The notes beneath the pieces are model-generated. The model was not told where the DNA came from, did no database searches, and saw nothing but the letters and a program-made list of their open reading frames with translations. A stretch of 64,000 bases of DNA from a virus (lineage: Duplodnaviria > Heunggongvirae > Uroviricota > Caudoviricetes): IMG/VR virus record IMGVR_UViG_3300042892_004104; one strand, given 5' to 3'. The translations under genes and the position numbers were made by a program. This document shows, in pieces, positions 13,371 through 32,440 of the stretch (within the stretch, counting starts at the first letter, position 1; each line of letters starts with the position of its first letter).

Positions 13371-13376
13371 AGTCAA

Positions 13377-13451: not shown

Positions 13452-13497
13452 ACCTCTCCCTGACATACGGAGTACAATGTGATAAGTTGTATGTTTC

Positions 13498-13571: not shown

Positions 13572-13652
13572 GCCCCAGTAGACAAATTGGCAAAGTCGTC
13601 TCTCTCAAAAGGAGAAATTTAGATGCGGGTTCGACTCCCGCCTGGGGCACCA
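13572..13652 (+). tRNA. tRNA-Leu (CAA), low certainty, 9-nt variable region; directly abuts the previous tRNA
   Basis: Acceptor gccccag/ctggggc perfect, anticodon stem tctct/ggaga with loop ctcaaaa, T-arm gcggg-ttcgact-cccgc, ACCA. Confidence 0.55.
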
Positions 13653-13702
13653 TGTTGTTTCTCTTGACACAAAATTAGTCATTATAAATACACTTAGAGT
13701 TA

Positions 13703-14245: not shown

Positions 14246-15729
14246 GCAAAAAAATAACTTGCATCAGCATTGATTTAATCAATGCCGACAAGCCTCCGGC
14301 TGCATTAGCATTTATGGCAGGAGCCTGTGAAAAGGTCAACGCAGATTATCAATGTATTAGCTTGAACTCAGTGTTTTATCATAAACTATCACAAAAAAAA
14401 TATAATGATATATATTCAAGCGTCAAAATTGGAAATATAGAAAATTTTTTACCTACTGTTGGTCCTGTTGTTCAGAAGATCATAGAACATGTAAAAAATT
14501 TCAACAGCGATTTGATCATGATAAGTGTGTTTAGCTACATGCAATATCAATTGGCAGAATTTTTCTTGCAACTTCTAAAAGAACAAATTCCCAATGTGGA
14601 AATAATTGCCGGGGGGCCAGGAATTGGGCACGAGATACACAGCATGACCAATGGCCGACGGCTACTAGAAAAAAATTTAATAGATTTTTATTGCCTAGGC
14701 GAAGGCGACGAAGTGCTGGTTAATTTTTTAAAAGGTAGTCGCTCTGAACTAGGAATAAACTCAAAAAGCAACTTTTATGAATCCTGGACCCCGCAAATCA
14801 ATGATTTAGATAAACACTATGTATTTCCTAGCTATAAAAAAATTGAGTCAGGCAACTATAAAAATTTAGAAAATAAAAATTCTACAGTGTTTAGCCTAAG
14901 CACAAGTCGAGGATGTGTAAGATCTTGCACTTTTTGTGATGTTGGTAAAACTTGGAAAAAATTTAAATTTAGAAGCGGGTCAAATGTTGTAGATGAAGTA
15001 ATAAAACATCATCAGGATATTGGTGCAGTGCATTTTACCATTGTAGATAGTTTGATCAATGGTAGTTTAAAAAGTTTTCAAGACTTTAATCTTAGAATGA
15101 TCAAAGTCAAACAACAATATCCTGGACTTAAAGATTTTAGTTATAATGGAATGTTTATTGTAAGAGATCGACACTCACACAAAGAAGATCTGTTTAAAAT
15201 TATGAAGCAGGCCGGATGCGACAGCTTGTCCATTGGGGTTGAGACGGGCAGTGATCACCTTCGAGCACAGATGAACAAAAAATTTACCAATAAAGATTTA
15301 GACTATCATTTGGAAATGTGCGACAAGTATGGTATCAGAAATAGCTTGTTTATGTTTGTTGGGTATCCAACAGAGACTGCCAAAGATTTTGAAGAGTCAG
15401 TGGCTATGTTATACAAATATCAACGGTATTTGATCAATGACACTATTATTGGTATCAACCATTCGGGCATCTTTAGTATGTTGCCTGACACCCCGTCATA
15501 CGATCACCGGCAGGAGTTGGGCATTGAAATTGTTGAAGACACCAGCAACACTGGTATTTTAAATTGGATCAATCACAATAACTTAGAATTGACTGTCAAA
15601 GAGAGAATACTAAGAGACCTAGAGTTTAGACAGCATGCACTAGATCTAAGATACCCTGTTCCGTATGCTGCTCGATACCTAGAGTATTTGAGCAAGGTAC
15701 ATCCAGAATTTGTACCTCAAAGTGATTGA
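14242..15729 (+). CDS. B12-binding-domain radical SAM enzyme (class B radical SAM)
   Basis: N-terminal cobalamin-binding-like region, SRGCVRSCTFC (CxxxCxxC), FVGYPTETAKDFEES motif. Confidence 0.75.
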   Translation: MSKKITCISIDLINADKPPAALAFMAGACEKVNADYQCISLNSVFYHKLSQKKYNDIYSSVKIGNIENFLPTVGPVVQKIIEHVKNFNSDLIMISVFSYMQYQLAEFFLQLLKEQIPNVEIIAGGPGIGHEIHSMTNGRRLLEKNLIDFYCLGEGDEVLVNFLKGSRSELGINSKSNFYESWTPQINDLDKHYVFPSYKKIESGNYKNLENKNSTVFSLSTSRGCVRSCTFCDVGKTWKKFKFRSGSNVVDEVIKHHQDIGAVHFTIVDSLINGSLKSFQDFNLRMIKVKQQYPGLKDFSYNGMFIVRDRHSHKEDLFKIMKQAGCDSLSIGVETGSDHLRAQMNKKFTNKDLDYHLEMCDKYGIRNSLFMFVGYPTETAKDFEESVAMLYKYQRYLINDTIIGINHSGIFSMLPDTPSYDHRQELGIEIVEDTSNTGILNWINHNNLELTVKERILRDLEFRQHALDLRYPVPYAARYLEYLSKVHPEFVPQSD

Positions 15730-15792
15730 TCTTGACTATTAGCAATGTAGTCATTGACTAATTGTTAGTCTAACTACAAAAGAAAGAACCAT

Positions 15793-16263
15793 ATGAAAAA
15801 AATTGATCTAGAAAAAGTCTGCGCATTTATTGAAGCTCAGTCGCCGGAAACCAAGATTTATCTGGGTTGCGATAGTGAACGTGTAAAAATAGATGGCGTA
15901 TGGCATGCTGACTATGTGTTGGCCATTGTGGTTCACATCAACGGCAACAACGGCTGCAAACTGTTTGGTGAAGTACATCGAGAACGCGACTATGACTCCA
16001 AGCCCGGCAAACCTGCCATGAGACTCATGACAGAAGTATACAAGGTCAGCGAGTTGTATCTAAAACTGGCCGAAGTACTGGATGGTCGTGATGTTGAAGT
16101 ACACCTGGATATCAATCCTGACGAAATGCATGGCTCAAGTTGTGTGATTTCACAAGCCATAGGCTACATCAAGGGCACATGCAATGTGGTTCCTTTTGTC
16201 AAGCCCGAAGCCTTTGCTGCCAGCTATGCTGCTGACCGTTTTAGGTCACTCCGCGTAGCTTGA
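15793..16263 (+). CDS. hypothetical protein (156 aa)
   Basis: ORF with AAAGAA SD-like sequence upstream. Confidence 0.6.
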   Translation: MKKIDLEKVCAFIEAQSPETKIYLGCDSERVKIDGVWHADYVLAIVVHINGNNGCKLFGEVHRERDYDSKPGKPAMRLMTEVYKVSELYLKLAEVLDGRDVEVHLDINPDEMHGSSCVISQAIGYIKGTCNVVPFVKPEAFAASYAADRFRSLRVA

Positions 16264-16270
16264 CGATTTT

Positions 16271-16344
16271 GCGTGGTTAGTTTAATGGTAAAACTTCTCG
16301 TTGCCAACGAGAGGTCAAGGGTTCGATTCCCTTACCCCGCACCA
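16271..16344 (+). tRNA. tRNA-Gly (GCC)
   Basis: Anticodon stem tctcg/cgaga with loop ttgccaa, T-arm aaggg-ttcgatt-ccctt, ACCA. Confidence 0.75.
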
Positions 16345-16352
16345 AATTATGG

Positions 16353-16408
16353 CCCAGTCCTCTGGCACATGACCTCTTTTAATGTTGTGTGTTACGACTG
16401 GGTTTTTC
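16353..16408 (+). terminator. hairpin (cccagtc ... gactggg, 7-bp stem, large loop) followed by TTTTTCT; possible terminator or processing site between tRNAs
   Basis: Read directly. Confidence 0.3.
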
Positions 16409-16413
16409 TACAA

Positions 16414-16487
16414 GCTCTTGTAGTTAAGTGGTATAACAAATCCATGGTAAGGATTAATCGACAGTTCGATTCTGTACTAGAGCACCA
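16414..16487 (+). tRNA. tRNA-Thr (GGT)
   Basis: Acceptor gctcttg/ctagagc, anticodon stem atcc/ggat with loop atggtaa, T-arm gacag-ttcgatt-ctgtc, ACCA. Confidence 0.75.
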
Positions 16488-16562
16488 GGGCCTTTGGTGA
16501 AATGGATATCATGCTGGTCTTCGAAACCAGCGGTGGGAGTTCGATCCTCTCAGGGCCCGCCA
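16488..16562 (+). tRNA. tRNA-Arg (TCG); abuts previous CCA
   Basis: Acceptor gggcctt/agggccc, anticodon stem ctggt/accag with loop cttcgaa, T-arm gggag-ttcgatc-ctctc, GCCA. Confidence 0.75.
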
Positions 16563-20642: not shown

Positions 20643-20671
20643 TTGACCCAAAATGCCCATTCTGCTATAAT
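20643..20671 (+). promoter_or_regulatory. sigma70-like promoter TTGACC-17-TATAAT
   Basis: Read directly. Confidence 0.55.
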
Positions 20672-20700: not shown

Positions 20701-20976
20701 ATGTTTTATATCGTTGCTAAAGGTACTGGTTTAATCGTAACAGACGGTCCTAACAAGACTCGTGCATACAAAACTTTCCCTGCGGCTCACGCCACCCGGA
20801 CTCGTTTGTGCCGCAAAGCAGGTTGGAGCGTGGACCAACTGAACATTGTGAGCCGTGACACTTACCGGGCTCCCAAGATGACTGTGAAGAACCTGATGAG
20901 CGGCGCTCCGGTGGAAATTGATGCAGACACGCCTTGGTGTTGCAACCCTGCGTCAGAAACTTACTGGTCAATGTAA
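20701..20976 (+). CDS. hypothetical protein (91 aa)
   Basis: ORF with AGGAG SD. Confidence 0.55.
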   Translation: MFYIVAKGTGLIVTDGPNKTRAYKTFPAAHATRTRLCRKAGWSVDQLNIVSRDTYRAPKMTVKNLMSGAPVEIDADTPWCCNPASETYWSM

Positions 20977-20981
20977 AACGG

Positions 20982-21010
20982 TTGACGATAAATCACCAAA
21001 ATGCTATAAT
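20982..21010 (+). promoter_or_regulatory. sigma70-like promoter TTGACG-17-TATAAT
   Basis: Read directly. Confidence 0.55.
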
Positions 21011-21035: not shown

Positions 21036-21293
21036 ATGTCAGCACTGAACACTTATTTGGATCGTAAAAATTCTTTTGCCAAACTGTTTGGACAAAAGGC
21101 TCTGAGCCTGCAGGTGGCTGCGGATCGTCAGAGTATTGCCAACAGCATTGATGCAGATCTCAGTCCTGAGAATTTGACCTGCGATGGTGAACTGAGCCGT
21201 AGTCAGGTGCAGACCCGCTACCGGGCCTTGACTGCCGCAGCCAAAGAGCTCAAGCAGTTGGATCCTGGTGTTAAATTTTACGAATTTGCCTAA
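21036..21293 (+). CDS. hypothetical protein (85 aa)
   Basis: AAGGAG SD 8 nt upstream of the ATG. Confidence 0.55.
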   Translation: MSALNTYLDRKNSFAKLFGQKALSLQVAADRQSIANSIDADLSPENLTCDGELSRSQVQTRYRALTAAAKELKQLDPGVKFYEFA

Positions 21294-21303
21294 GGAGAGC
21301 AAT

Positions 21304-21516
21304 ATGAACATGAGCTACTGCATGTTTCAAAACACCGCAAACGATCTGCGTCAGTGCCTGGAGGCCATGGATGCAGCCGAGACCATGGCTGAACTGGAAC
21401 TGAGCCGTGACGAAAAGCGCAGTTACGATCTCATGCGAGAATACTGCGAAAACTTCCTGAACATTGCTGAACGACTGGATGATGCTGACGCTGACGCTTT
21501 TGGAGTTGCAAAATGA
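21304..21516 (+). CDS. hypothetical protein (70 aa)
   Basis: AAGGAGAG SD. Confidence 0.55.
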   Translation: MNMSYCMFQNTANDLRQCLEAMDAAETMAELELSRDEKRSYDLMREYCENFLNIAERLDDADADAFGVAK

Positions 21517-21731
21517 ACGAACGAATTCGAGAACTACTGAAACAGGCAACTAAAGCAGTTGATCCCGAAAACCGTGTATGGGTGTTTTCTAAGGTTGACC
21601 AAGCAAAGTTCGCCGAGTTGATTGTGCGGGAATGTGCTAATATTGATTTTAGACGCGAGGTCGGGTTAACTGCTGATGATGATTACGAAATCGGCAAGGT
21701 TATAAAAGAACACTTTGGAGTCGAATCGTGA
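21513..21731 (+). CDS. small paralog family member (MNERIREL...KFAELIVREC...EHFGVES)
   Basis: Conserved termini; ATGA-overlapped start. Confidence 0.6.
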   Translation: MNERIRELLKQATKAVDPENRVWVFSKVDQAKFAELIVRECANIDFRREVGLTADDDYEIGKVIKEHFGVES

Positions 21732-21928
21732 AAGTGACCCATCCCTACACCTTGATAAAGCGGCGTATTGATGTTGTGGTCCGAGTGCCAGCCTGGGCGG
21801 TTGGAGAGATAAACAAAGGCGATCTGGTCATACGCCTGGATGCTCAAACTGTTTTGCGAGACAATGGCAGATACAAGGTGGGCGAATCCTACACCAAGTT
21901 CTGGGGCTACACAGGAGAAAATGCATGA
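21728..21928 (+). CDS. hypothetical protein (66 aa, GTG start)
   Basis: ORF between two family members. Confidence 0.45.
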   Translation: MKVTHPYTLIKRRIDVVVRVPAWAVGEINKGDLVIRLDAQTVLRDNGRYKVGESYTKFWGYTGENA

Positions 21929-22152
21929 ACAAACGAATTCAACAACTTGCCGAACAGGCTACATCTTACAATAACAGTGATGGTTGGCTTTTTGATAAAG
22001 AAAAGTTCGCCCAGTTGATTGTTCAGAAATGTATATCAGTTATTAATACTGAGGCTGCCGAAGTTCCTGCTGAAGATGAATATGAAAGAATGTGGAAGAT
22101 GGGAACGGAATTTGCTGTATATCAGATTGAAAAACATTTCGGAGTTGAATGA
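21925..22152 (+). CDS. small paralog family member
   Basis: MNKRIQQLAEQA...KFAQLIVQKC...EKHFGVE. Confidence 0.6.
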   Translation: MNKRIQQLAEQATSYNNSDGWLFDKEKFAQLIVQKCISVINTEAAEVPAEDEYERMWKMGTEFAVYQIEKHFGVE

Positions 22153-22529
22153 TGAACACACGAATTCGAGAACTTGTCGTTGAGGCTAGGAACTATGCCC
22201 TAGATGAAAAGCGAATTTATGAACGAGTGCATAACACCGAACAATGTATGGAAGAATATCGTGATGTGTATAACAAAAAGTTCGCTGAACTGATTGTGGC
22301 TGAATGTTTGGCCCAGGTTGCCCGGGTGGATGACATGTTGGAAGATGAGCCTGCACAACATGCGGCAGTGGCCTGGGTGGCCCGGTCAATTGCAGACCAT
22401 TTTGACGTTGCAAAACCACAGTCAGACTGGGATCAAGAAGCAGCTGAATTTATTGCCGCAGAGAATAAAAAGGTTGCCAGCAGATACGGATATATCCCAA
22501 AACTTCATCCATCAGAATGGCAAGACTAA
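22149..22529 (+). CDS. small paralog family member (extended)
   Basis: MMNTRIRELVVEA...KFAELIVAEC...DHFDVAKP. Confidence 0.6.
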   Translation: MMNTRIRELVVEARNYALDEKRIYERVHNTEQCMEEYRDVYNKKFAELIVAECLAQVARVDDMLEDEPAQHAAVAWVARSIADHFDVAKPQSDWDQEAAEFIAAENKKVASRYGYIPKLHPSEWQD

Positions 22530-22735
22530 TGAACACACGAATTAAAGAGTTGGCTGAACAATGCTGGGACAAGCGTCCAGAAGGCCAACTACATTTTGAC
22601 AATGAAAAGTTCGCCGAGTTGATTGTTAAGAAATGTATGGATATTGCCAAGTATCACACGCCCGACACAGAAGAATGTGAATATACATGGTTGATCCATG
22701 CCAAGATTCAAGAACATTTCGGAGTTGCGGAATGA
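22529..22735 (+). CDS. small paralog family member
   Basis: MNTRIKELAEQ...KFAELIVKKC...EHFGVAE. Confidence 0.55.
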   Translation: MNTRIKELAEQCWDKRPEGQLHFDNEKFAELIVKKCMDIAKYHTPDTEECEYTWLIHAKIQEHFGVAE

Positions 22736-22962
22736 ACCAACGAATTCGACAACTTGCTGAAAAAGCAAACATTGAGTTTACCTATGACCCAACAGAAAAA
22801 CCTGTTAGAGCATTTGCCGAGTGTTGGGAAGATGAACTTGAAAAGTTCGCTGACATGATTGTGCAGGAATGCGGTGTAGCATTGAGTCCTATGTTGCGTG
22901 ATATGATCAGCCGTGGGCAGGCTGTGGAGTTGATTAAGAAACATTTTGGAGTTGAACTATGA
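22732..22962 (+). CDS. small paralog family member
   Basis: MNQRIRQLAEKA...KFADMIVQEC...KHFGVEL. Confidence 0.55.
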   Translation: MNQRIRQLAEKANIEFTYDPTEKPVRAFAECWEDELEKFADMIVQECGVALSPMLRDMISRGQAVELIKKHFGVEL

Positions 22963-23078
22963 CACAGAACGATTGGGTATTACTAATGTGTCTAGCAATT
23001 GGATGGCTACAGGGTCTGTATATTGGATGGTTACTGTGGCGTAGACCACAATTGAAATATCACGGAGTTGCAGAATGA
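22959..23078 (+). CDS. 39-aa hydrophobic peptide ending ...YHGVAE
   Basis: ATGA-coupled at both ends; transmembrane-like core. Confidence 0.35.
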   Translation: MTQNDWVLLMCLAIGWLQGLYIGWLLWRRPQLKYHGVAE

Positions 23079-23314
23079 ACCCACGAATTCAAGAACTTTT
23101 AAAACAAGCTGGGGTCACTGACAACTGGAACAAGGCAGACTGGTACAGTATGAGTCCAGAGATGATTGAAAAATTCGCCCAGTTGATTGTGCAGGAATGT
23201 GTGGAACTGGTATCTGTTAACAGAGACCTGGCTATCGAAGATGAATGGAATGTGGATGAAGCAATGTCCACAGCAATCAATGATATTGAAGAACATTTCG
23301 GAGTTGAATCGTGA
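23075..23314 (+). CDS. small paralog family member
   Basis: MNPRIQELLKQA...KFAQLIVQEC...EHFGVES. Confidence 0.6.
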   Translation: MNPRIQELLKQAGVTDNWNKADWYSMSPEMIEKFAQLIVQECVELVSVNRDLAIEDEWNVDEAMSTAINDIEEHFGVES

Positions 23315-23478
23315 TCACACTGTTTATCTGGACTGTGGTCGGCTACGCTGGTATGAACAATAGCATCAGTACTAAAATGGACTGGCGGGCTTTGGCTCAG
23401 TTTGAGACAGTCGCGCTCTGTGAGGAGGCTGTGCGATCCATGAACCTACAGGACAGGCACCGTTGCCTGAAGACCAAA
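23311..23478 (+). CDS. 55-aa hypothetical protein (GTG start)
   Basis: Coupled GTGA and ATGA junctions. Confidence 0.35.
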
Positions 23479-23741
23479 TGAACAAACAAATTCAACAACT
23501 TGCCGAACAGGCTCATTGCTATGCTTGTGAATATGCTCGACAACCAGATTACAATCCACACAACCCTTACAATCAAGGAATGTATAAACAGCGATACGAT
23601 TCAAAGTTCGCCCAGTTGATTGTGCAGGAATGTATGGATGCAGTGGGTGATGGACCAATGCAAAGACCAGAAATTCAACGGATCAAAGCCAGGTTTGGGG
23701 TTGAGTATTACGAGCCAATTGAAAAAGCATTTGGGAGTTGA
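23478..23741 (+). CDS. small paralog family member
   Basis: MNKQIQQLAEQA...KFAQLIVQEC...ARFGVEY. Confidence 0.55.
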   Translation: MNKQIQQLAEQAHCYACEYARQPDYNPHNPYNQGMYKQRYDSKFAQLIVQECMDAVGDGPMQRPEIQRIKARFGVEYYEPIEKAFGS

Positions 23742-23744
23742 ATC

Positions 23745-24140
23745 GTGAACATAACTGTATACAGCTGGAATCTACTAAAAGAATCCTGTGAGCGTTGGTC
23801 GGTGCCCAGAGACTTTGCCGACCCCATGCTGAACTATCTGGTGTATGGATATAGTCCGGGTAGTTGTTTCTATGCGGTGCTGGCCAATGACTGGCGTGGG
23901 GCAATAGGATCCAGCCATTCCATGAACAGTGTAGAAGCCTTCAAGGCCTTGACCGGCTGGATACACAACGACTTTCCTGCCGAAGCACGTGGCAGTTACC
24001 AAGCTGTCGACCAGTGGTGTCAGCTTGATGCTGTGGTTCGACGAGCAATCCTTGAACGACAGGGACTGATCTATACCCAGCACGAAGAAGTGTTTAAAAT
24101 TCTACGGAATGAGCACACCGTGGAACCTGTGTTGTATTAA
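23745..24140 (+). CDS. hypothetical protein (131 aa, GTG start)
   Basis: ORF. Confidence 0.5.
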   Translation: MNITVYSWNLLKESCERWSVPRDFADPMLNYLVYGYSPGSCFYAVLANDWRGAIGSSHSMNSVEAFKALTGWIHNDFPAEARGSYQAVDQWCQLDAVVRRAILERQGLIYTQHEEVFKILRNEHTVEPVLY

Positions 24141-24156
24141 GCATGAGAGTTGAACC

Positions 24157-24447
24157 ATGATGCAAGATTTCGTGTATGAGCAAACTCGAGCCACTGTGAC
24201 CGACACATGGGATGACGAGATATCACAGTCTGTGATTGCAGCCGCAGTCAATGCGCCTCGAGCCAGCTACCGGATTTATTATTCCCAGGACAACCTGACC
24301 CGTAGGATTTTTGTTCATCGCGGCTGGCCCAACTGCACACCCACAGAGATTGACGCATTGTTGGGCTTGGGCTTTGTGGTGGCACAGCCTGGTGATGCAG
24401 ACAACATTCCTGATCATGCACCTGTGTTTGAAAGGCTTTTGAAATGA
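24157..24447 (+). CDS. hypothetical protein (96 aa)
   Basis: ORF. Confidence 0.5.
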   Translation: MMQDFVYEQTRATVTDTWDDEISQSVIAAAVNAPRASYRIYYSQDNLTRRIFVHRGWPNCTPTEIDALLGLGFVVAQPGDADNIPDHAPVFERLLK

Positions 24448-24659
24448 ACCAACGAATTCGAGAACTTGCTGAACAGGCTACATCAATTGTAGAAATGGTT
24501 GGTCCACAAGGTTATACAAGTTCATATGCTAACTTTGATAGAGAAAAGTTCGCCGAATTGATTGTGCGGGAATGTGCTGGCCGAGTTGATTGGATACTTG
24601 CCGAAGGTGGCCGGACACAGGGTGATTTGATTAGAGAACATTTTGGAGTTGAAGAATGA
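24444..24659 (+). CDS. small paralog family member
   Basis: MNQRIRELAEQA...KFAELIVREC...EHFGVEE. Confidence 0.6.
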   Translation: MNQRIRELAEQATSIVEMVGPQGYTSSYANFDREKFAELIVRECAGRVDWILAEGGRTQGDLIREHFGVEE

Positions 24660-24874
24660 ATACGCCCATCGTTCCTGATAATAAATTCAAGTTCTGGGCT
24701 GATCCTAGATTTGAAATTCTGGCAGAAATGGACAAACTATTGAACGGTAGCAAGATCTGGGGTGGCCAGGAATGGGTCTACCATCCCATCCATCCTGTGA
24801 AATATCAGCCTGTGGCCGAAAAGATTCGTCTAGCAATGGATGCGTTAAAAGCAGAATACGGAGTTGAAGAATGA
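24656..24874 (+). CDS. small protein ending ...EYGVEE (family-related C-terminus)
   Basis: ORF with junction motif. Confidence 0.5.
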   Translation: MNTPIVPDNKFKFWADPRFEILAEMDKLLNGSKIWGGQEWVYHPIHPVKYQPVAEKIRLAMDALKAEYGVEE

Positions 24875-25101
24875 GTGACTCCATCATGCCCGTAACTCAA
24901 TTTGCCAACAGCTTCACTGGCGTGTTGCCCATTGCCACTGTGGGCAAAGGTGTTGTCAAACAGGAAAGTTGGCAACAGACCACTTATCCCAATGGTGCCA
25001 CGGTCACCAGGGTTTATCACGCCAGTATTGAAGTGTATGACAACCGTGCAGTGGTGACCCGGCACAATGAACCAAACATCATTGACATTTTGATCAAGTA
25101 A
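24871..25101 (+). CDS. hypothetical protein (76 aa)
   Basis: ORF. Confidence 0.5.
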   Translation: MSDSIMPVTQFANSFTGVLPIATVGKGVVKQESWQQTTYPNGATVTRVYHASIEVYDNRAVVTRHNEPNIIDILIK

Positions 25102-25128
25102 TATTACAATAACTCACCGGGAGAAATC

Positions 25129-25575
25129 ATGTTTGCAGTGCTGAAATTTATCTACATCTTGTTCAAGGCGTTCAGAGACGGGCTCAATCCCAATGTCAAC
25201 AGTCTAAGACATGCACCAACTTATTTGAAATACTTTGCCAGCATTGTGTTGGCCTGTTTCTGGTGCCTGGCCTTTGGTCTTTACATTGGTGAACTCATGA
25301 CCATTGGCTACAACATGATTGGTCACATTGCCCTAATCACCATGGCATTCAGCACTGGCTATGTCATGCAAGTGTTCAGGAAAACATATAACCCTGGCCA
25401 AGTCACTGTGAGACAAGGCACTGTGGAATATCTACGCATGCCTGATCGAAGCAGTCGCTGTGATGAACTTACTGAAGAACAACGCCTGGCCAAAATTCAA
25501 GAATGGAATCAGCGCAATGTTTGGAATGATCCCAAACTGGCCAAAAAAGACAAAGAAACCTACTACGGAGCATGA
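25129..25575 (+). CDS. membrane protein (148 aa), 3 predicted transmembrane helices
   Basis: Hydrophobic segments. Confidence 0.55.
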   Translation: MFAVLKFIYILFKAFRDGLNPNVNSLRHAPTYLKYFASIVLACFWCLAFGLYIGELMTIGYNMIGHIALITMAFSTGYVMQVFRKTYNPGQVTVRQGTVEYLRMPDRSSRCDELTEEQRLAKIQEWNQRNVWNDPKLAKKDKETYYGA

Positions 25576-25679
25576 CCATGACCGTTGATGAAATTATTTC
25601 TACCATAATTATTGTAACCGTAGTGGGAGCAGTACTATGGGACATGTACAAGAAAGAAGAACATGAACCCGGAGAATAA
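25572..25679 (+). CDS. 35-aa single-TM peptide
   Basis: ATGA-coupled; hydrophobic core IISTIIIVTVVGAVLW. Confidence 0.3.
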   Translation: MTMTVDEIISTIIIVTVVGAVLWDMYKKEEHEPGE

Positions 25680-25794
25680 AGAACCAGAAAAAGATCCAGT
25701 GGACGATGTGGTTGAACACATACACATTGTGTTGCCCATTGTGGGAGCCGTCTTGGTGTTCATGCTGGCTTTTATTGCTGTTACAATGGCCTAA
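25663..25794 (+). CDS. 43-aa single-TM peptide
   Basis: Hydrophobic core VLPIVGAVLVFMLAFIAV. Confidence 0.3.
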   Translation: MNPENKEPEKDPVDDVVEHIHIVLPIVGAVLVFMLAFIAVTMA

Positions 25795-25807
25795 CACTAG
25801 GCAATAT

Positions 25808-25836
25808 TTGACTTAAAATACCTCTTCTGCTATAAT
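25808..25836 (+). promoter_or_regulatory. sigma70-like promoter TTGACT-17-TATAAT
   Basis: Read directly. Confidence 0.55.
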
Positions 25837-25867
25837 ACATGTATAGCAAAACAAAACAGGAGAGAAC

Positions 25868-26143
25868 ATGAGCATTCAAAGCATCAACACTGAGATCATC
25901 GCAGGTAATTTTACCAACGATCAACTCACCAGCATCATTGATGCTGTGAAATATGCTCGGGCTCAACTAGCCCAGAAAAACAAACGGGCCTTGACATTGC
26001 AGAGCAACGTGGAATTCACCAGTGCTAAAACTGGTCGAGTCATGCGTGGTTTTGTGCAAAAGATTGCCATCAAATATGTGACTGTAGACACAGGCGGGGG
26101 CCTGTGGCGGGTTCCTGCCAACATGCTGAAGGTAGTAGCATGA
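25868..26143 (+). CDS. hypothetical protein (91 aa)
   Basis: AGGAGAG SD. Confidence 0.55.
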   Translation: MSIQSINTEIIAGNFTNDQLTSIIDAVKYARAQLAQKNKRALTLQSNVEFTSAKTGRVMRGFVQKIAIKYVTVDTGGGLWRVPANMLKVVA

Positions 26144-26310
26144 GTCGCATTAAAGATTATTTTGCCCCTATAGAGGAACCGGACAACATGCCTTATGCCC
26201 CAGAACCAGAACCAGAACCAGACCAGGCAGAAGATCAGGGTCAACAAGTGTTTGCTCACATGATTCGCGAGCTTACACAACGTTTTCGGCCAGAACTTGA
26301 TTTTGACTAA
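26140..26310 (+). CDS. hypothetical acidic protein (56 aa)
   Basis: ATGA-coupled. Confidence 0.4.
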   Translation: MSRIKDYFAPIEEPDNMPYAPEPEPEPDQAEDQGQQVFAHMIRELTQRFRPELDFD

Positions 26311-26331
26311 AAATCACAGATCACGTATAAT
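26303..26331 (+). promoter_or_regulatory. sigma70-like promoter TTGACT-17-TATAAT
   Basis: Upstream of the MoxR-like gene. Confidence 0.55.
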
Positions 26332-26364
26332 ACAATTTTCAACCACTCCACCAAGGAAATTTCC

Positions 26365-27450
26365 ATGTCAGATACCCGCACTGTTACTTCTGCACAAGCC
26401 CGCAAGAGCCTGCTCAAAGCATTCCGCGTCCAGCGTCCGTTGTTCCTGTGGGGTCCTCCGGGTATTGGCAAAAGCGAACTGGTGGAAAATATCACCAAAG
26501 AGCTAGGTGGCCTAATGATTGATCTGCGCCTGGGCCAGATGGAACCCACCGACATTCGTGGCATTCCGTTCTACAACAAGGACATTGGCAAGATGGATTG
26601 GGCACCTCCTGTGGAATTGCCCGACGAAGAAATGGCCAAGGACTATCCCATTGTGGTCCTGTTCCTGGACGAGTTGAATTCAGCCGCACCCAGCGTTCAA
26701 AGTGCCGCATATCAGTTGATTCTGAATCGACGCATTGGCAAATATCGCCTGCCTAAAAATGTTGTTATGGTTGCCGCAGGCAACAGGGAAAGCGACAAGG
26801 GCGTTACTTACCGCATGCCTACTCCGCTGGCAAACCGTTTCTTGCACCAAGAGATGAAGGTGGATTTTGCTAGTTGGCAAGAGTGGGCTGTAACCAACAA
26901 AGTTCACAAGGACGTGGTTGGCTACTTGAGCTTTGCTAAACAGGACCTGTACGACTTTGATTCTAAGTCCAGCTCACGTGCGTTTGCTACACCGCGTACC
27001 TGGAGTTTTGTAAGCGAGCTCCTGCAAGAAGATGACAGCGACGACAACACCATGACCAACCTGATTGCAGGCACTGTGGGCGAAGGTCTTGCTGTGAAGT
27101 TCATGGCACATCGCAAGATTGCCGGACGCATGCCCAACCCTGCAGATATCTTGAGTGGCAAGGTTACCACTCTTGACGTCAAAGAAGTCAGTGCCATGTA
27201 CAGCCTGGTGATCTCCATGTGCTACGAGCTCAAGGCCGCTGTGGAGAACAAGGTGGAGGACAAAAAGTTTCAGGACATGGCCGACCACTTCCTGGGCTAC
27301 ATGATGAAAAACTTTGAAACAGAGTTGACTGTGATGGGTGCTAGAATTGCCCTTACTACTTATAACTTGCCCATGATGCCTACCAAGCTGAAAAACTTTG
27401 ACGAGTTCCATCAACGCTTTGGCAAGTACATTTTGGCTGCTAGTACCTAA
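26365..27450 (+). CDS. MoxR-family AAA+ ATPase (CobS-like)
   Basis: Walker A LWGPPGIGKSE, Walker B VVLFLDELN, sensor regions; ~360 aa as in phage CobS homologs. Confidence 0.85.
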   Translation: MSDTRTVTSAQARKSLLKAFRVQRPLFLWGPPGIGKSELVENITKELGGLMIDLRLGQMEPTDIRGIPFYNKDIGKMDWAPPVELPDEEMAKDYPIVVLFLDELNSAAPSVQSAAYQLILNRRIGKYRLPKNVVMVAAGNRESDKGVTYRMPTPLANRFLHQEMKVDFASWQEWAVTNKVHKDVVGYLSFAKQDLYDFDSKSSSRAFATPRTWSFVSELLQEDDSDDNTMTNLIAGTVGEGLAVKFMAHRKIAGRMPNPADILSGKVTTLDVKEVSAMYSLVISMCYELKAAVENKVEDKKFQDMADHFLGYMMKNFETELTVMGARIALTTYNLPMMPTKLKNFDEFHQRFGKYILAAST

Positions 27451-27456
27451 ATTGAT

Positions 27457-27489
27457 CGGGGCTGTTTAATCACAGCCCCGGTGTTTCTT
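27457..27489 (+). terminator. rho-independent terminator
   Basis: cggggctgt-ttaatc-acagccccg followed by gtgtttctt. Confidence 0.6.
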
Positions 27490-27506
27490 ATCACAAGGAC
27501 CAGAGT

Positions 27507-27749
27507 ATGGGATGGATAGTGTATACTAAAAAATCTGGCGAGATTTTGAGATATTACGATACTGAATCCAAGGCACGGTCGCAGGTGACTGGACACAATA
27601 AAAAACTATTTTGGTCAAGATTACAGTCAACCCGAATCGACTATAAAGAAGAATGGGCACATTGTGACTGGCAAGACTACGAAAATATTTTTAAGAAATA
27701 CTACGAAGTTCATAAACCCTACATGTTGCAGAGCAGCAGTTACAAATGA
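27507..27749 (+). CDS. hypothetical protein (80 aa)
   Basis: ORF. Confidence 0.5.
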   Translation: MGWIVYTKKSGEILRYYDTESKARSQVTGHNKKLFWSRLQSTRIDYKEEWAHCDWQDYENIFKKYYEVHKPYMLQSSSYK

Positions 27750-28084
27750 AATATCAAGTAACCGATATGGACCGCCGCTTCAGCCATAGCGCGAGCTTCA
27801 ACTATATGCTAGAGTTTTCCAAAAATACCTGGGGACATAGCACTGGTGTGTTGGATTTTGACCGAGCTCGTCGCTGGATGAATCGCACCTGGGGCTGGGG
27901 GCAGGATGTGGAAACTCGTACCGCTATCAAGCGTTGTAAAATGCTTAATCCTGCTGTTGCGGTACAGGATGAAGATATCAATCAGCACTGGGCATATTCG
28001 GTTGCATACAAAGACTATCGTATCTATCTTGCTAGTGAAAAAGAACTGGCATTTTTTCAACTGGCACATTCAGGCACTGAATAG
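27746..28084 (+). CDS. hypothetical protein (112 aa)
   Basis: ORF. Confidence 0.55.
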   Translation: MKYQVTDMDRRFSHSASFNYMLEFSKNTWGHSTGVLDFDRARRWMNRTWGWGQDVETRTAIKRCKMLNPAVAVQDEDINQHWAYSVAYKDYRIYLASEKELAFFQLAHSGTE

Positions 28085-28416
28085 TGGGACAGGTAACTGT
28101 AAAAAAGAATCTTGTGGTATTTCATGATCCTGCTGACTGGACAAAGATTCTAGATCAATTGACTCAGACTTATGGCAACACAATTCGCATGCGGCACATA
28201 ATGCGGCGTGAGCTAGGTTTTACTGCCCGTGACCATCAAGGACTAGAACCCTACTATGCACCAATTTCAACCGCCGCAGTAATATATCCTGGGCTAGTCT
28301 CTGTGGAAAAACGGCATCACTACAGTCCGCAGGTACACTTGGATTTTTTTACAGAGGCTGCGCACTCTTGGTTCCAGTTAAAGTACCTAAACCGTGAACG
28401 TCAGAACAATAGCTGA
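28084..28416 (+). CDS. hypothetical protein (110 aa)
   Basis: ORF; its 3' end lies in the tandem duplication. Confidence 0.55.
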   Translation: MGQVTVKKNLVVFHDPADWTKILDQLTQTYGNTIRMRHIMRRELGFTARDHQGLEPYYAPISTAAVIYPGLVSVEKRHHYSPQVHLDFFTEAAHSWFQLKYLNRERQNNS

Positions 28417-28481
28417 TTTGACCATTAATCGCTACCTAAACCGTGAACGTCAGAACAATAGCTGATTTGACCATTAATCGC
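28384..28481 (+). repeat. 49-bp perfect tandem direct repeat (2 copies) spanning the stop of 28084-28416
   Basis: tacctaaaccgtgaacgtcagaacaatagctgatttgaccattaatcgc x2 read directly. Confidence 0.9.
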
Positions 28482-28495
28482 TATTGTGCTATAAT
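28467..28495 (+). promoter_or_regulatory. sigma70-like promoter TTGACC-17-TATAAT; the -35 lies in repeat copy 2 and the -10 just beyond it
   Basis: Read directly; drives the VWA gene. Confidence 0.55.
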
Positions 28496-28520
28496 TACAC
28501 ATAAGCAACAAAGGACTCGC

Positions 28521-29798
28521 ATGACATCTACTACTGCTACAAAAGAAGACCACAAGAAGTTTGCCAACTTGCTGGGCAAAACTGATCCCAAAATTGATCG
28601 AGAAGTACGTGAGCTTTTGATCACTGCCCGTGTGGGCTTGCTGTTGAAAGCCAGTTTCTTTGGCAACTTGGCCACTAGATTGAAACTGGTCAATGCCGAC
28701 GAATGGTGCAGTACCGCCGCAACAGACGGCAGAAACTTCTATTACAACAGCCGTTTCATCAAACTGTTGCGTCCCAAAGAAATTGAATTCTTGTTTGGCC
28801 ACGAAGTCTTGCATTGTGTATATGATCACTTTGGCCGTAGGGGTGATAGAGATCCTCAACTGTTTAACATTGCCAATGACTTTTGCGTTAATGCAGACCT
28901 AATCAAACACAAAGTAGGTGAAAAGATCACGTCAGTGCCTTGTTTGTATGATCCCAAGTATGATGGCATGAGCTCCGAAGAAATCTACGATATCTTGTAT
29001 GAAAAAGCAGACAAGATTGACATTGGCAAATTGCTGGATCAAATGATCGACGAGCACCTGGATGGTGAAGGCGACAGCGACAGTGACGACGATCAAGATG
29101 GCAAAGGCAAAGGTCGTCCCAAACTCACTGCCGAAGAACGTCAAGCCATCAAGGATGAGATCAAGGAAGCCATGCTGGCAGCGGCTGCCACAGTGGACGG
29201 AGCAGGCAACTTGCCCGCAGGTGTCAAGCGACTGATCCAGGAGCTCACCGAGCCACAAATGAACTGGCGTGAACTGTTGCGTATGCAATTGGAGAGCACT
29301 ATCAAAAGTGACTACACCTGGATGCGAGCAAGCCGTAAAGGCTGGCACATGGATGCAGTCATGCCTGGCATGAAACTGGATCCCATGATTGATATTGCTG
29401 TGGCTCTGGATGCATCTGGCAGTATTAGCGAAACCATGCTGAAAGACTTCTTGGGTGAGATTCAAGGCATCATGGAATCGTTCCCAGCATACCGTATTCA
29501 TGTGGTCACATTTGATACCGAAGCATACAACCCTGTGCAGTATGACAGTGAAAACTTAGATGACATCTGCGATTACGAAATCAAGGGTGGTGGTGGCACA
29601 GACTTTGAATGTATCTTCAACTACCTGAAAGAGAACGAGATTGAACCCAAGCGCCTGGTAGTGTTCACAGACGGCTACCCGTTTGGTTCATGGGGTGATG
29701 AGAACTACGCAGACACTGTGTGGATCTTGCATGGCACTACAACCATTGTGCCACCTTGGGGACAGCATGCCTACTACGATGAGGAGAAAAACAAATGA
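28521..29798 (+). CDS. VWA-domain protein with N-terminal HExxH metallopeptidase-like domain (CobT-like or MoxR-associated)
   Basis: HEVLH; MIDAS motif DASGS; C-terminal FTDGYP. Confidence 0.8.
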   Translation: MTSTTATKEDHKKFANLLGKTDPKIDREVRELLITARVGLLLKASFFGNLATRLKLVNADEWCSTAATDGRNFYYNSRFIKLLRPKEIEFLFGHEVLHCVYDHFGRRGDRDPQLFNIANDFCVNADLIKHKVGEKITSVPCLYDPKYDGMSSEEIYDILYEKADKIDIGKLLDQMIDEHLDGEGDSDSDDDQDGKGKGRPKLTAEERQAIKDEIKEAMLAAAATVDGAGNLPAGVKRLIQELTEPQMNWRELLRMQLESTIKSDYTWMRASRKGWHMDAVMPGMKLDPMIDIAVALDASGSISETMLKDFLGEIQGIMESFPAYRIHVVTFDTEAYNPVQYDSENLDDICDYEIKGGGGTDFECIFNYLKENEIEPKRLVVFTDGYPFGSWGDENYADTVWILHGTTTIVPPWGQHAYYDEEKNK

Positions 29799-30223
29799 TT
29801 GTTAGACTAGAGCAAGATGCCAACGGCGATTTGATTCTGCCACTCAGCGACGAACTGTTGCAGTCAGTTGGTTGGCAAATTGGTGACACTGTTGTGTGGA
29901 CTGATAACAAAGATGGTTCCTGGACCATGAGCAAGAAGCCCAAGACCAGGATTGTGCTGGTTGATGCACTGGTATCATATCGCATGCGTTATGCTGTGGA
30001 ACTGGCAGAAGATTCACCGGAAGAGTGGGCCAGAGACACTGTGACCATGGAACAGGCTGTAGAGTTTAGCCAGGAGTGCCTGGGCGAGCAGATTGTGTCA
30101 CACAGAGTGATTACTGAGGATGAATTTTTACAACAGTTTGACAAGGACAACGGTTATCTTGCAGACTGGCCCGCAGACAAAAAGTTTGACTCAGCACTGA
30201 CCCGGCTGGAGATCACAAAGTGA
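29795..30223 (+). CDS. hypothetical protein (142 aa)
   Basis: ORF. Confidence 0.55.
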   Translation: MIVRLEQDANGDLILPLSDELLQSVGWQIGDTVVWTDNKDGSWTMSKKPKTRIVLVDALVSYRMRYAVELAEDSPEEWARDTVTMEQAVEFSQECLGEQIVSHRVITEDEFLQQFDKDNGYLADWPADKKFDSALTRLEITK

Positions 30224-30495
30224 ACGAACGAATTCAACTACTGATTGAGCAGGCCACTACCCGCATTGATCCCACGGCTCATGACGGAGCGTGTTGGGAC
30301 TTTGATAAAGAAAAGTTCGCCGAGTTGATTGTAGCAGAATGTATTGCACAATGCGAGCAAGTTGCTACAGATGCTGATGCTATGACTAATAGTAAATTTG
30401 TAACTGATGCAGGTCGTATGCTTCACGAAGGTATGTGGGGTGGCGCCAAGAATTGTACCGCCCAGATTCAAACACATTTTGGAGTAGAAGAATGA
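30220..30495 (+). CDS. small paralog family member (GTG start)
   Basis: MNERIQLLIEQA...KFAELIVAEC...THFGVEE. Confidence 0.55.
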   Translation: MNERIQLLIEQATTRIDPTAHDGACWDFDKEKFAELIVAECIAQCEQVATDADAMTNSKFVTDAGRMLHEGMWGGAKNCTAQIQTHFGVEE

Positions 30496-30644
30496 CTCCG
30501 GCTGAGATTATTTTATTAGTAATTCTTTCTCCGTTGTATTTGGGGATAACAGTAGCAGGAGTAGGAGTTGTAATAGTCTCGTGGATATGTGTATTCGCCC
30601 TGCTGGGTAATCAGAAAGCACGAGACTTTATACGGAGATTTTAA
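30492..30644 (+). CDS. 50-aa transmembrane protein
   Basis: ATGA-coupled; two hydrophobic segments. Confidence 0.4.
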   Translation: MTPAEIILLVILSPLYLGITVAGVGVVIVSWICVFALLGNQKARDFIRRF

Positions 30645-30646
30645 GA

Positions 30647-30862
30647 ATGAACGAACGAATTCTAAAACTTGGTGCAGAGGCCGGACTGTATGTGGATCTC
30701 GACGGTGCGCCGTGGCCGCGAGCCATGTCAGCCGAAGAATCTGAAGCAGCCTATAAAAAGTTCGCCGAGTTGATTGTTCAGGATGTGTTAAACGAAGTGC
30801 TACAGGCAATAGATGATGGTATGGACGTCTACTACACAGTGGCAGATAAATTTCGGAGTTGA
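30647..30862 (+). CDS. small paralog family member
   Basis: MNERILKLGAEA...KFAELIVQD. Confidence 0.55.
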   Translation: MNERILKLGAEAGLYVDLDGAPWPRAMSAEESEAAYKKFAELIVQDVLNEVLQAIDDGMDVYYTVADKFRS

Positions 30863-30865
30863 AGA

Positions 30866-31033
30866 ATGAAGGAAATCATAGCATTGATCACTGCGTATTT
30901 TACAGCATTCATAGTTACTTACGGGCATGCCTATCAGCAGGTAGATTCTACCTTTGCCGGAGAGAATGCTGTTGGAGCATTCGTTTCATCACTCTTCTGG
31001 CCACTCTATTGGTCTGTGCAGGTGTGGAAATAG
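30866..31033 (+). CDS. 55-aa membrane protein (ATG-initiated; preferred over the track's TTG-initiated 30859-31176 ORF)
   Basis: ATG lies 9 nt after GGAG of the junction motif; hydrophobic. Confidence 0.4.
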   Translation: MKEIIALITAYFTAFIVTYGHAYQQVDSTFAGENAVGAFVSSLFWPLYWSVQVWK

Positions 31034-31052
31034 TTGTTAATGGAGTTGAACT

Positions 31053-31286
31053 ATGTCGACTGATTGTAACTCACACGAATTTCTATGGAAGGCAGATCGC
31101 GCCATTCCTATGTGGAGTGGAGAATGGACTCCGCCAGAAGGTTCAAGTATGGCTAGAGGATATGCTCATGAGATAACCAATGAATGGAGACAGTATTGGA
31201 TTGCTCAGAATGCTAAAGATGGTTGGAAACAGGTAGCAAGACAGATACAAGATAGCGTTAATAGACATTTTGGAGTTGAATCATGA
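31053..31286 (+). CDS. small protein ending ...RHFGVES
   Basis: ORF with family-like C-terminus. Confidence 0.5.
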   Translation: MSTDCNSHEFLWKADRAIPMWSGEWTPPEGSSMARGYAHEITNEWRQYWIAQNAKDGWKQVARQIQDSVNRHFGVES

Positions 31287-31368
31287 TTGAACTATTGGTC
31301 CTTGTGTGTGTAATTGGTCCCACTGTGGTTGTTCACTACTTGGGCAAGTAATATTTTGGAGTTGAAGA

Positions 31369-31545
31369 ATGATTAGACTTTGGTTGGTATTTTTTGTTTC
31401 GGTTGCTGTGATACATTTTGCCATTGCGGCCTGGCGAAAGATAGACGGAAAAGAACGCTGGTCCTTGACAAAATCTCTAGGATACAGTATAATTGTTTCA
31501 CTGCTAACAGTAATGCTGATGACAGCAATTGTGGTAATTTTTTAA
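31369..31545 (+). CDS. 58-aa two-TM membrane protein
   Basis: Preceded by an intergenic copy of the TTTTGGAGTTGAAGAATGA motif. Confidence 0.4.
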   Translation: MIRLWLVFFVSVAVIHFAIAAWRKIDGKERWSLTKSLGYSIIVSLLTVMLMTAIVVIF

Positions 31546-31553: not shown

Positions 31554-31643
31554 ATGTTTTCTGAAGTGGTTGGACGCCTGGCGTATGTTGCGCTGGGTAT
31601 TGTGATTGGTATCAATCTTTTTCTTTTTTTTGGAGTTATCTAA
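31554..31643 (+). CDS. 29-aa hydrophobic peptide ending ...FFGVI
   Basis: Coupled to the 31643 start. Confidence 0.3.
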   Translation: MFSEVVGRLAYVALGIVIGINLFLFFGVI

Positions 31644-32440
31644 TGAATCGTGTTATTAAACTTTCTATCGTAGCCGCGGCTGTGGCTCTTACTAGTGCTT
31701 GCACTCGCATTGAAACCGGCGAGGTCGGTGTGCGTGTGGGCTTTGACAAACAGGTAAAATCTGGCGAACTGTTGCCAGGCTCGTTCAATCAAACCTTGAT
31801 TGGTGAAGTGCTCACATTCCCTATCAAGGATGTCAATGTAGTTCTGGACAACATGACTCCTGTGGCCAAAGACAACAGCACCATGAAAGAGGTGGATGCC
31901 GTGGTTGTTTATAACATCAACCCACAAAGTGTTGCAGAGTTGTACAGTACCAAGAACAAGAGCTTTCATGCTGAGTTCAAGGGCGATACCTATGTGATGT
32001 ACAACTACATTGTACAGAATGCTCGTAACGCCATCTACAAGGCTGCTCGCAAGTACGAGGCCCTGGACATGGCAGATGCTCGTGGTGACATGGAAACCTT
32101 TATCAAGGAAGAAATTGTTCGTAATCTTACCGAAGAAAAACTAGACAGTAGCATCACTATCAGTCAGGTGTTGATTCGTAATATTGTGCCAGCCGACACT
32201 GTGGTTGAAAGCGCCAATGCATTGGTTCGCAGTAAAAACGAACTCAAGCAGAAGGAAGTTGAAGTCAAGACCGCTGAAGCTGAAAGCCGTCGTATGGCAG
32301 CATTGGCCAACAACTCAGGTGCAAGCATTGCGTTCATGCAGGCACAGGCCATGTTGAACATTTCGGAAGGTATCAAGAACGGTCAAGTGCAGACCATTGT
32401 TGTTCCCTCAAACTTCAACGCACTCATGATGAACAAGTAA
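31643..32440 (+). CDS. SPFH/band-7 (prohibitin/HflKC-like) domain lipoprotein
   Basis: Lipobox-type signal (…ALTSAC), SPFH-like core, coiled-coil C-terminus (KQKEVEVKTAEAESRRMAAL). Confidence 0.7.
   Translation: MNRVIKLSIVAAAVALTSACTRIETGEVGVRVGFDKQVKSGELLPGSFNQTLIGEVLTFPIKDVNVVLDNMTPVAKDNSTMKEVDAVVVYNINPQSVAELYSTKNKSFHAEFKGDTYVMYNYIVQNARNAIYKAARKYEALDMADARGDMETFIKEEIVRNLTEEKLDSSITISQVLIRNIVPADTVVESANALVRSKNELKQKEVEVKTAEAESRRMAALANNSGASIAFMQAQAMLNISEGIKNGQVQTIVVPSNFNALMMNK

Follow-up and report, generated by a model that had tools for sequence, protein, structure and literature searches.

In the pilE/pilS system of Neisseria, variable segments are separated by short blocks of conserved nucleotide sequence at which crossovers take place, and combinatorial variants arise on a fixed scaffold; one expressed locus is accompanied by silent donor copies in a bacterium. 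Boundary sequences are also found in lambdoid phages, where they are rare and lie between unrelated genes. One account of lambdoid mosaic joints includes the proposal that conserved boundary or linker sequences target homologous recombination and thereby lead to modular exchange (PMC3974807). The ip locus of T-even phages encodes polymorphic small proteins with a short conserved segment that are thought to counter host defenses (PMC3012670). The closest analogue of the system described here is the shuffling mediated by promoter-early stem-loops (PeSLs), mobile regulatory cassettes of T4-type phages (Arbiol et al., 2010, PMC2839356; Comeau et al., 2014, PMC4122927). These intergenic elements of about 100 bp consist of a sigma70 promoter and a terminator stem-loop and end in a Shine-Dalgarno sequence and a start codon (PMC2839356; PMC4122927). 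Here we describe a family of small protein genes arranged in two tandem arrays in a 64,000-nucleotide stretch of DNA from a virus of the Caudoviricetes (IMG/VR record IMGVR_UViG_3300042892_004104; this whole stretch is the window below), whose members are joined, and appear to be reshuffled, at three short blocks of conserved DNA.

A listing of open reading frames (ORFs), motif scans and an alignment confirmed the presence of same-strand, small paralogous ORFs with the motifs MN.RI..L..QA, KFA.LIV.EC and HFGVE at 21.5-24.9 and 30.2-31.3 kb, which an initial annotation of this DNA had pointed out; ten columns are invariant in the alignment of the clear copies. A hidden Markov model of the family recognizes exactly 10 members in the window, eight at 21513-24659 and two at 30220-30862. 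The 12 or more copies counted initially are therefore too many, probably because ORFs that have only the tail encoded by the 3′ block (see below) were included. The family members and two of their conserved DNA blocks are the following (aa, amino acids; nt, nucleotides; pI, isoelectric point):

21513-21731, + strand: family copy 1, 72 aa
21925-22152, + strand: family copy 2, 75 aa
22152-22529, + strand: family copy 3, 125 aa, with a C-terminal extension
22529-22735, + strand: family copy 4, 68 aa
22732-22962, + strand: family copy 5, 76 aa
23075-23314, + strand: family copy 6, 79 aa, pI 4.06; 3′ cassette at 23300-23313
23478-23741, + strand: family copy 7, 87 aa; central block at about 23603
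24444-24659, + strand: family copy 8, 71 aa; subject of the first structure model
30220-30495, + strand: family copy 9, 91 aa, GTG start
30647-30862, + strand: family copy 10, 71 aa; C-terminus 1 nt out of frame
21589-30790, + strand: central block AAGTTCGCCGAGTTGATTGTGCrGGAATGT, ten copies, one per family member (50-nt frames starting at 21589, 21986, 22261, 22590, 22826, 23154, 23587, 24529, 30296 and 30741)
21502-31371, + strand: junction cassette (3′ block) GGAGT(T/C/A)G(A/C)(A/G)nn(A/G)TG, fifteen copies (starting at 21502, 21717, 22141, 22721, 22948, 23064, 23300, 23734, 24645, 24860, 30481, 30855, 31042, 31272 and 31358)

At other array loci several same-strand copies are the rule as well, with a maximum of 14 copies in 16 kb.

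We consider it probable that these genes form a coupled operon of small proteins with three DNA-conserved swap blocks and variable inserts of different specificities. Such a translationally coupled operon would provide, early in infection, small (about 70-125 aa) and mostly acidic cytoplasmic proteins built on a fixed helical scaffold, to which an N-terminal helix (MNERIRELAEQA), the first part of helix 2 (EKFAELIVxEC) and the final part of the last helix (IxxHFGVE) would contribute, with two exchangeable variable inserts between these scaffold segments. The three short nucleotide blocks would act as crossover points for homologous recombination and in this way create a combinatorial repertoire, while the 3′ block would in addition give a ribosome-binding site and a start codon to the following gene, so that any gene inserted at the cassette would be translated by coupling. 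The conserved base of the protein would hold the fold together or contact a common partner, and the variable inserts would make the paralogs differ in what they bind, with host proteins shortly after infection as the most plausible targets. This arrangement suggests that the proteins form a repertoire that binds or inhibits host proteins, and an early anti-host role, in anti-defense or host takeover as the initial annotation had it, is plausible.

To judge from its sequence, the 3′ block is the ribosome-binding site and the start of the next gene. The tail FGVE[ES] and its stop codon are encoded by TTYGGAGTTGAAnnATGA, in which a GGAG Shine-Dalgarno motif is followed, after 7 nt, by a start codon that overlaps the stop codon. 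Overlaps of this kind (ATGA, GTGA, TGATG or TAATG) are present at nearly every junction; the start/stop overlaps noticed initially are thus borne out and are not of the ATGA type alone. Among 276 homologs at other loci, in which the consensus of the 3′ block is TTYGGAGTTGAAGAATGA, the Gly codon is GGA in 270 and the Val codon is GTT in 256, as opposed to background frequencies of 23 and 33%, respectively. Within the window, the sequence GGAGTTGAAnnATG occurs 14 times with at most one mismatch (0.43 expected) and is confined to the two arrays. GGAG is present in 187 of 188 terminal motifs and in three of the six internal ones, which belong to proteins with a C-terminal extension. In copy 3 the motif has become internal, reads HFDVAK (TTTGACGTT) and has lost GGAG; copy 7 carries an internal RFGVEY without GGAG (TTTGGGGTT), and its true 3′ end has an out-of-frame cassette at 23734-23747. 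Copy 10 ends with ADKFRS at its stop codon, while its homolog P0085 has ADKFGVEE; one extra T in a run of T residues moves FGVEE and the stop codon to another frame, and the cassette of the downstream gene is intact (30855-30868). Either the sequence is in error here or the truncation is tolerated.

The cassette is found outside the family as well. In the window, non-family ORFs end with it, spacer DNA contains it (31042 and 31358), and copies 7 and 10 have it at their true 3′ ends in another reading frame. Over all loci, 335 cassettes lie on the array strand and a single one on the opposite strand; 174 of the former lie ahead of a gene outside the family, and 80 come after something other than a family member. 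The corresponding features of the window are:

21268-21516, + strand: non-family acidic ORF whose last codons (AFGVAK and stop) hold the 3′ cassette ahead of copy 1
22959-23078, + strand: non-family hydrophobic ORF of 39 aa ending in YHGVAE and stop; its tail is the cassette serving copy 6
24656-24874, + strand: non-family ORF of 72 aa whose only common feature with the family is the cassette-encoded tail YGVEE and stop
31053-31286, + strand: non-family ORF of 77 aa with the C-terminal block only (..RHFGVES and stop)
31337-31372, + strand: orphan 3′ block (YFGVEE in frame between two stop codons, TTTTGGAGTTGAAGAATGA) in an 82-nt spacer, serving the start of ORF 31369-31545

The ORF at 21268-21516 gave no match to the C-terminal part of the family profile, and the 39-aa ORF gave none to the family profile. 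Scores against this profile were 3.4 bits or less for the ORF at 24656-24874 and 9-11 bits for that at 31053-31286, in both cases over the last 15-19 positions only. The orphan block is probably the scar of a deleted cassette. That unrelated neighboring ORFs end in GVE(E/S) would follow from the service of the 3′ block as ribosome-binding site and start of the next gene, and their common tail thus reads as a side effect of a portable cassette for translational coupling. What the conserved termini mean was apparently misread before; they look to be largely a feature at the level of DNA, namely a ribosome-binding site and recombination blocks.

All three scaffold segments are kept as nucleotide sequence, often with rare codons, across unrelated phages. 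At block residues the codon choice departs strongly from the background (given second in each case): CGA for Arg (93 and 14%), CTT (80 and 16%) and TTG (94 and 25%) for Leu, AAG for Lys (89 and 36%), GCC for Ala (88 and 23%) and GAG for Glu (90 and 26%). In pairwise comparisons, identical residues are encoded by the same codon at a frequency of 0.81 in the blocks vs. 0.48 in the variable segments, and this excess is independent of the divergence of the pair and is alike within and between loci. Kinship of the carriers does not account for this: merely 0.7% of the pairs of carrier loci have at least 1 kb in common at 80% identity or more. The G+C (GC) content of the loci ranges from 31 to 59%, and still the identity of the blocks to their consensus is near 91%. 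The exact 25-nt junction (3′ plus 5′ block) occurs on at least 120 viral contigs, and so does the exact 20-nt central block. Two simple readings of this conservation were rejected or judged unlikely: a 6-nt RNA pairing between block 1 (GAACTT) and block 2 (AAGTTC) lacks covariation (p = 0.17), and a GTG start codon inside the central block is disfavored by the Val codon, which is GTG in only 44% of the copies. As candidates for what holds blocks 1 and 2 at the nucleotide level we consider gene flow, second-order selection for recombinability and a sequence-specific factor.

The central block separates two variable segments in each protein. The single hypervariable middle of the initial annotation resolves into these two segments, which are made of discrete modules of 8-97 aa. 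In a set of 345 non-redundant proteins we distinguished 175 types of N-modules and 204 types of C-modules, which occur in 298 combinations; each of the 43 N types with at least two members has at least two different C partners, and one of them has 45. Homologs from metagenomes are chimeric, with parts of different window paralogs joined at the central block: the N-module of copy 8 is found with the C-modules of copies 4, 5, 6, 8, 9, and 10, and that of copy 1 with the C-modules of copies 3 and 7. Two strain variants of the phage itself display such junctions directly, with exact breakpoints. One (L003) has 99.98% identity to the window from position 23300 (GGAGTTGAATCGTG, the 3′ cassette of copy 6) onward and is unrelated upstream, where a non-family ORF of 119 aa ends in ..EDGVES and a stop codon. 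The other (L006) is 100% identical from position 23603 (AAAGTTCGCCCAGTTGATTGTG, the central block of copy 7), with another N-module upstream. Collectively, these comparisons show the blocks as boundaries for the exchange of N-modules, C-modules and whole genes, for which homologous recombination is the likely mechanism. The "hypervariability" of the family is, on this evidence, the combinatorial reassortment of discrete modules and not fast point evolution.

The ends of homology speak for the same boundaries: among 701 internal ends between loci (at least 80% identity), 312 fell within the blocks ±8 nt, compared with about 17 expected (blocks account for 2.4% of the total sequence and for 14.8% in the local surroundings). 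Several observations weigh against this interpretation. The result on homology ends is partly built into the test, since conserved blocks lengthen alignments so that their ends drift to the far block edges. A strict survey (at least 95% identity) yielded 11 ends, six of them in blocks, too few alone; hence the rerun at 80%. Only three strictly independent block breakpoints lie between near-identical contigs. The related sequences are all metagenome (short-read) assemblies, in which repeats can give rise to chimeric contigs, a concern that is greatest for L006, which stems from a Logan assembly. Logan assemblies are built with k = 31. The same types of chimeras recur, in diverged form, on many independent contigs, some of them longer than 150 kb, and this recurrence argues that the chimeras are real and not artefacts of assembly. 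Homogenization by recombination is hard to picture across phages of 31-59% GC, presumably with different hosts, and blocks 1 and 2 may have a further function at the nucleotide level. Folding of the mRNA around the start codons is not unusually unstructured (z-scores of -1.4 to +1.5), there is no hint of a binding partner, and expression, coupling, recombination and protein function are all read from sequence. A stronger version of the proposal, which we regard as tentative and rather unlikely, sees in the blocks the dedicated recombination sites of a diversification system that is pan-phage, may use a specific nuclease or recombinase and continually reshuffles two binding modules on a fixed mini-scaffold; if true, phage lineages with very different hosts would have in common an immune-repertoire-like library of inhibitors of host proteins and defenses.

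Like the PeSLs of T4-type phages, the array has short conserved DNA motifs at the junctions of small genes without annotated function in plastic early regions; breakpoints of insertions, deletions or replacements between close phages sit at these motifs (here 23300 and 23603), and the motif supplies expression signals to any gene that it flanks. It differs in that its cassette has neither promoter nor stem-loop and is placed inside the upstream coding sequence, where it would act by translational coupling. Two more blocks lie within the gene, so that half-genes are shuffled too, and the blocks are common to phages of 31-59% GC and not confined to a single lineage. In contrast to the joints of lambdoid phages, the blocks are systematic, number in the hundreds, occur also inside genes and would have a defined translational role. 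Unlike in Neisseria, every copy appears expressible, and the exchange takes place among phage genomes. The architecture is a new version of cassette-mediated modular shuffling.

Direct selection on the blocks is the strongest rival explanation, although we regard it as doubtful: the blocks would mainly be RNA or DNA operators that set the timing or amount of expression, with shuffling as a by-product, and the factor that reads them could be a translational repressor, a RegB-like RNase cutting at GGAG, a homing nuclease or the family protein itself. Conservation at the codon level over 31-59% GC is easier to explain by direct selection than by gene flow, and the cassette contains GGAG, the target of the T4 RegB RNase. 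Moreover, small GIY-YIG-like ORFs are encoded near the arrays in 17 of 94 loci, which leaves this association a minority one. No candidate factor was identified, no conserved RNA structure was found (as the covariation of blocks 1 and 2 given above illustrates), and folding at the starts is unremarkable. The GIY-YIG-like ORFs measure about 105-175 aa and lie within a few kb of the arrays (L015, L025, L048, L060, L084, L090, L091, and others); in L090 such an ORF abuts a family copy, and the arrays of the window have none.

The remaining alternatives concern the proteins themselves. We modeled two members with AlphaFold2 (AF2). Copy 8 (mean predicted local distance difference test, pLDDT, 91.5) is predicted to form a helix (3-11), a beta-hairpin (13-31) and two further helices (33-48 and 59-67), and copy 6 (pLDDT 90.1) four helices (3-11, 20-25, 28-56, and 60-75). 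Both models have helix 1, the beginning of helix 2 and the last part of the final helix in common, while the inserts differ; the variable segments form the connector of helices 1 and 2 and the tip of the hairpin of helices 2 and 3. From this topology, the conserved segments would be expected to come together at the same end of the molecule. The proteins of nine copies are plainly acidic, with pI values of 4.1-5.3, and the tenth, at 6.07, is close to neutral. Within module types, the variable segments have a ratio of non-synonymous to synonymous substitutions (dN/dS) of 0.13-0.14 at dS 0.7-0.8; the family ORFs are coding, and their variable segments are under purifying selection. The view of a diversified tandem protein family taken by the initial annotation is upheld by these data (dN/dS about 0.13, pLDDT 90-92).

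It is improbable that the proteins are packaged into the virion as internal (ejection) proteins like IPI-III of T-even phages, with an N-terminus that targets them to the capsid and is cleaved by a prohead protease, the remainder serving in anti-restriction. The I-R-E and L-A-E tripeptides read in MNERIRELAEQA resemble the T4 prohead-protease sites, (L/I)xE, and the N-terminus is conserved in an otherwise diverse family, much as the internal proteins of T-even phages are diverse defense inhibitors with only the targeting sequence in common (PMC3012670). In those proteins the N-terminal targeting peptide is the only conserved part, is cleaved, and the proteins end up in the virion. Here, the N-terminal helix is integral to the predicted fold (pLDDT 89-94) and the center and the C-terminus are conserved as well, giving three conserved blocks in the predicted fold. 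The proteins are acidic (pI 4.1-6.1), and their genes lie in an early-type operon behind sigma70-type promoters and not in a late structural module, on contigs that differ widely in size and GC content.

Conserved ends around a variable core, together with several radical SAM and SPASM proteins encoded in the window, had also brought to mind precursors of ribosomally synthesized and post-translationally modified peptides (RiPPs), with a conserved leader and follower, that are matured by the phage's own radical SAM/SPASM enzymes. We now hold this to be very improbable. The conserved ends are part of confidently predicted globular helical domains (pLDDT 90-92), of which they form the scaffold, and the variable parts consist of distinct modules, 8-97 aa long, that are themselves conserved. 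An ORF of at least 220 aa with a CxxxCxxC motif is found within ±10 kb in only five of 94 loci, and the radical SAM/SPASM genes of the window are at least 6 kb away or on the other strand; the radical SAM cluster on the opposite strand, 19 kb away, adjoins a carbamoyltransferase gene, with a nucleotide-sugar epimerase gene farther upstream. We also rejected a target of a diversity-generating retroelement, which would differ from a template repeat chiefly at adenines and lie near a reverse transcriptase gene, since the variation consists of discrete, length-variable modules under purifying selection; a search for repeats returned only the three blocks and the promoters, and reverse transcriptase was not specifically searched for. 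That the array is a non-coding or degenerate DNA repeat with accidental ORFs, as the conservation of certain parts as DNA might intimate, hardly deserves credence in view of frames that are open in hundreds of copies with many insert lengths, a dN/dS of about 0.13 at dS of about 0.75 in the variable segments, and confident AF2 models.

The family is undescribed and new to databases. A search with the ten-copy profile in a 90%-identity database matched 7,977 of 8,000 scored candidates, effectively all of them "hypothetical"; at the 50%-identity level there were 7,980 representatives at E ≤ 1e-3 and 1,176 at E ≤ 1e-10, almost all of 65-145 aa. Pfam-A, PHROGs v4, NCBIfam and PADLOC returned nothing at curated cut-offs (best E values of about 0.002-0.01, for unrelated domains), no relative was found in PDB, fold searches with the models gave nothing informative and no structural match to a fold of known function, and no relevant mention of the motifs or of anything comparable came up in a full-text search of the literature. 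The initial impression that the motifs belong to no characterized family thus holds. Searches with tblastn, using one copy and the consensus, found no match in 50,697 phage records, although relatives below about 40% identity would be missed with a 71-aa query. A sequence-profile hit to a Pumilio/PUF repeat in PDB (E 2e-4) is limited to 28 residues around KFAELIVxEC, which resembles the Pumilio motif KFASNVVEKC; no stretch is significant alone, PUF is absent from the fold-search matches, and we judged the hit to be due to chance. One protein of 676 aa (P0234) with ten repeats containing "MNERVRELA" matches the profile in the N-terminal helix only and is an unrelated repeat protein. In IMG/VR, the family is common on viral contigs of 4 kb to 374 kb; in a collection of species genomes it is present only on contigs of 0.5-20 kb, mostly short, of metagenome-assembled genomes (MAGs) from aquatic taxa, which are probably binned phage fragments. 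The family appears to be specific to uncultured phages, and the titles of the MAG records (Lake Erken, Aquiluna, Rhodoferax) suggest freshwater as its main source.

Near-consensus sigma70 promoters are indeed present, as had been noted initially, yet they flank the arrays and do not precede each gene. Two of them lie upstream of the first array:

20643-20671, + strand: near-consensus sigma70-type promoter, TTGACC-17-TATAAT
20982-21010, + strand: near-consensus sigma70-type promoter, TTGACG-17-TATAAT

Between 19 and 33 kb, seven sites that match at least 11 of 12 consensus positions are found on the + strand, compared with 0.26 in dinucleotide shuffles, and none on the − strand; these sites border the arrays (20643, 20982, then 25082; 28467, then 31465). 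Within 21037-25081, neither a promoter nor a + strand terminator was called; the first array therefore looks like a single unit and is probably polycistronic. No + strand terminator-like site was called inside either array. Over 1588-42282 of the window, the + strand has seventeen near-consensus sigma70 promoters (at least 11 of 12), as opposed to only one for the − strand; several of those on the + strand have the extended motif TTGACnnAAAATnnnnnnnnTGCTATAAT in common, and the minus-strand block from 43 kb on has no near-consensus sigma70 promoter. The strand split of the promoters suggests a division of the genome into early and late parts, and the array region probably acts early in infection.

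The large phage with this array is known from metagenomes only, and the sequence of copy 8 recurs identically on contigs of up to 189,773 bp. A megablast search with 12 kb found no nucleotide match in 50,697 phage records. Judged by the neighboring MoxR-type ATPase (phrog_1297), the nearest cultured relative is the Pseudomonas jumbo phage PA5oct (51% identity), in which neither a family member nor a block was found ±20 kb around the ATPase gene. Between and after the two arrays, the + strand encodes this MoxR-type AAA ATPase (26365-27450), a DUF2201 VWA/metallopeptidase protein (28443-29798) and an SPFH/Band 7 protein (31643-32440). A perfect 49-bp tandem duplication (28384-28481, + strand) at the start of the DUF2201 gene includes the −35 part of the promoter at 28467-28495, and at the 5′ end of variant L003 a related VWA gene is partly present, arranged differently. 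Two + strand ORFs of 91 aa each (20701-20976 and 25868-26143) lie on either side of the first array; their families accompany arrays in 11-12 other loci, and one of them ends in ..CCNPASETYWSM. Long antisense ORFs over the family genes (21271-24887, − strand) recur in 28 loci because the sense strand is conserved; we rejected them as genes and regard them as shadow ORFs. By eye, on representative sequences without annotation, the neighbors of the arrays in other loci resemble genes of replication and nucleotide metabolism.

Farther away, 29 clustered tRNA genes (40-16562, + strand) are interspersed with radical SAM genes at 5724-6995 and 14242-15729, the latter of which also encodes a B12-binding domain, and a nucleotide-sugar epimerase is encoded at 36000-36995. 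A chain of ten overlapping or abutting ORFs of 320-490 aa each (43520-55736, − strand) includes the carbamoyltransferase gene (43520-45001) and radical SAM proteins, two of which (47402-48616 and 48613-49872) have a SPASM domain at the N-terminal end; several ORFs of the chain are without a Pfam match. This chain may represent a glycan or nucleotide modification pathway.

The findings extend the PeSL idea of cassette shuffling from intergenic promoters to translational-coupling junctions and intragenic crossover points. They also offer an unusually clean natural case in which conserved protein "motifs" would largely be imposed by functions at the level of DNA, and with it a caution for annotation based on motifs, FGVEE apparently being the translation of a ribosome-binding site. 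With about 8,000 clusters at 50% identity, the family is very large, and it is wholly unannotated. If its variable inserts are binding surfaces, it would be a ready-made combinatorial library of small inhibitors and a testable model for the generation of diversity in the early genes of phages.

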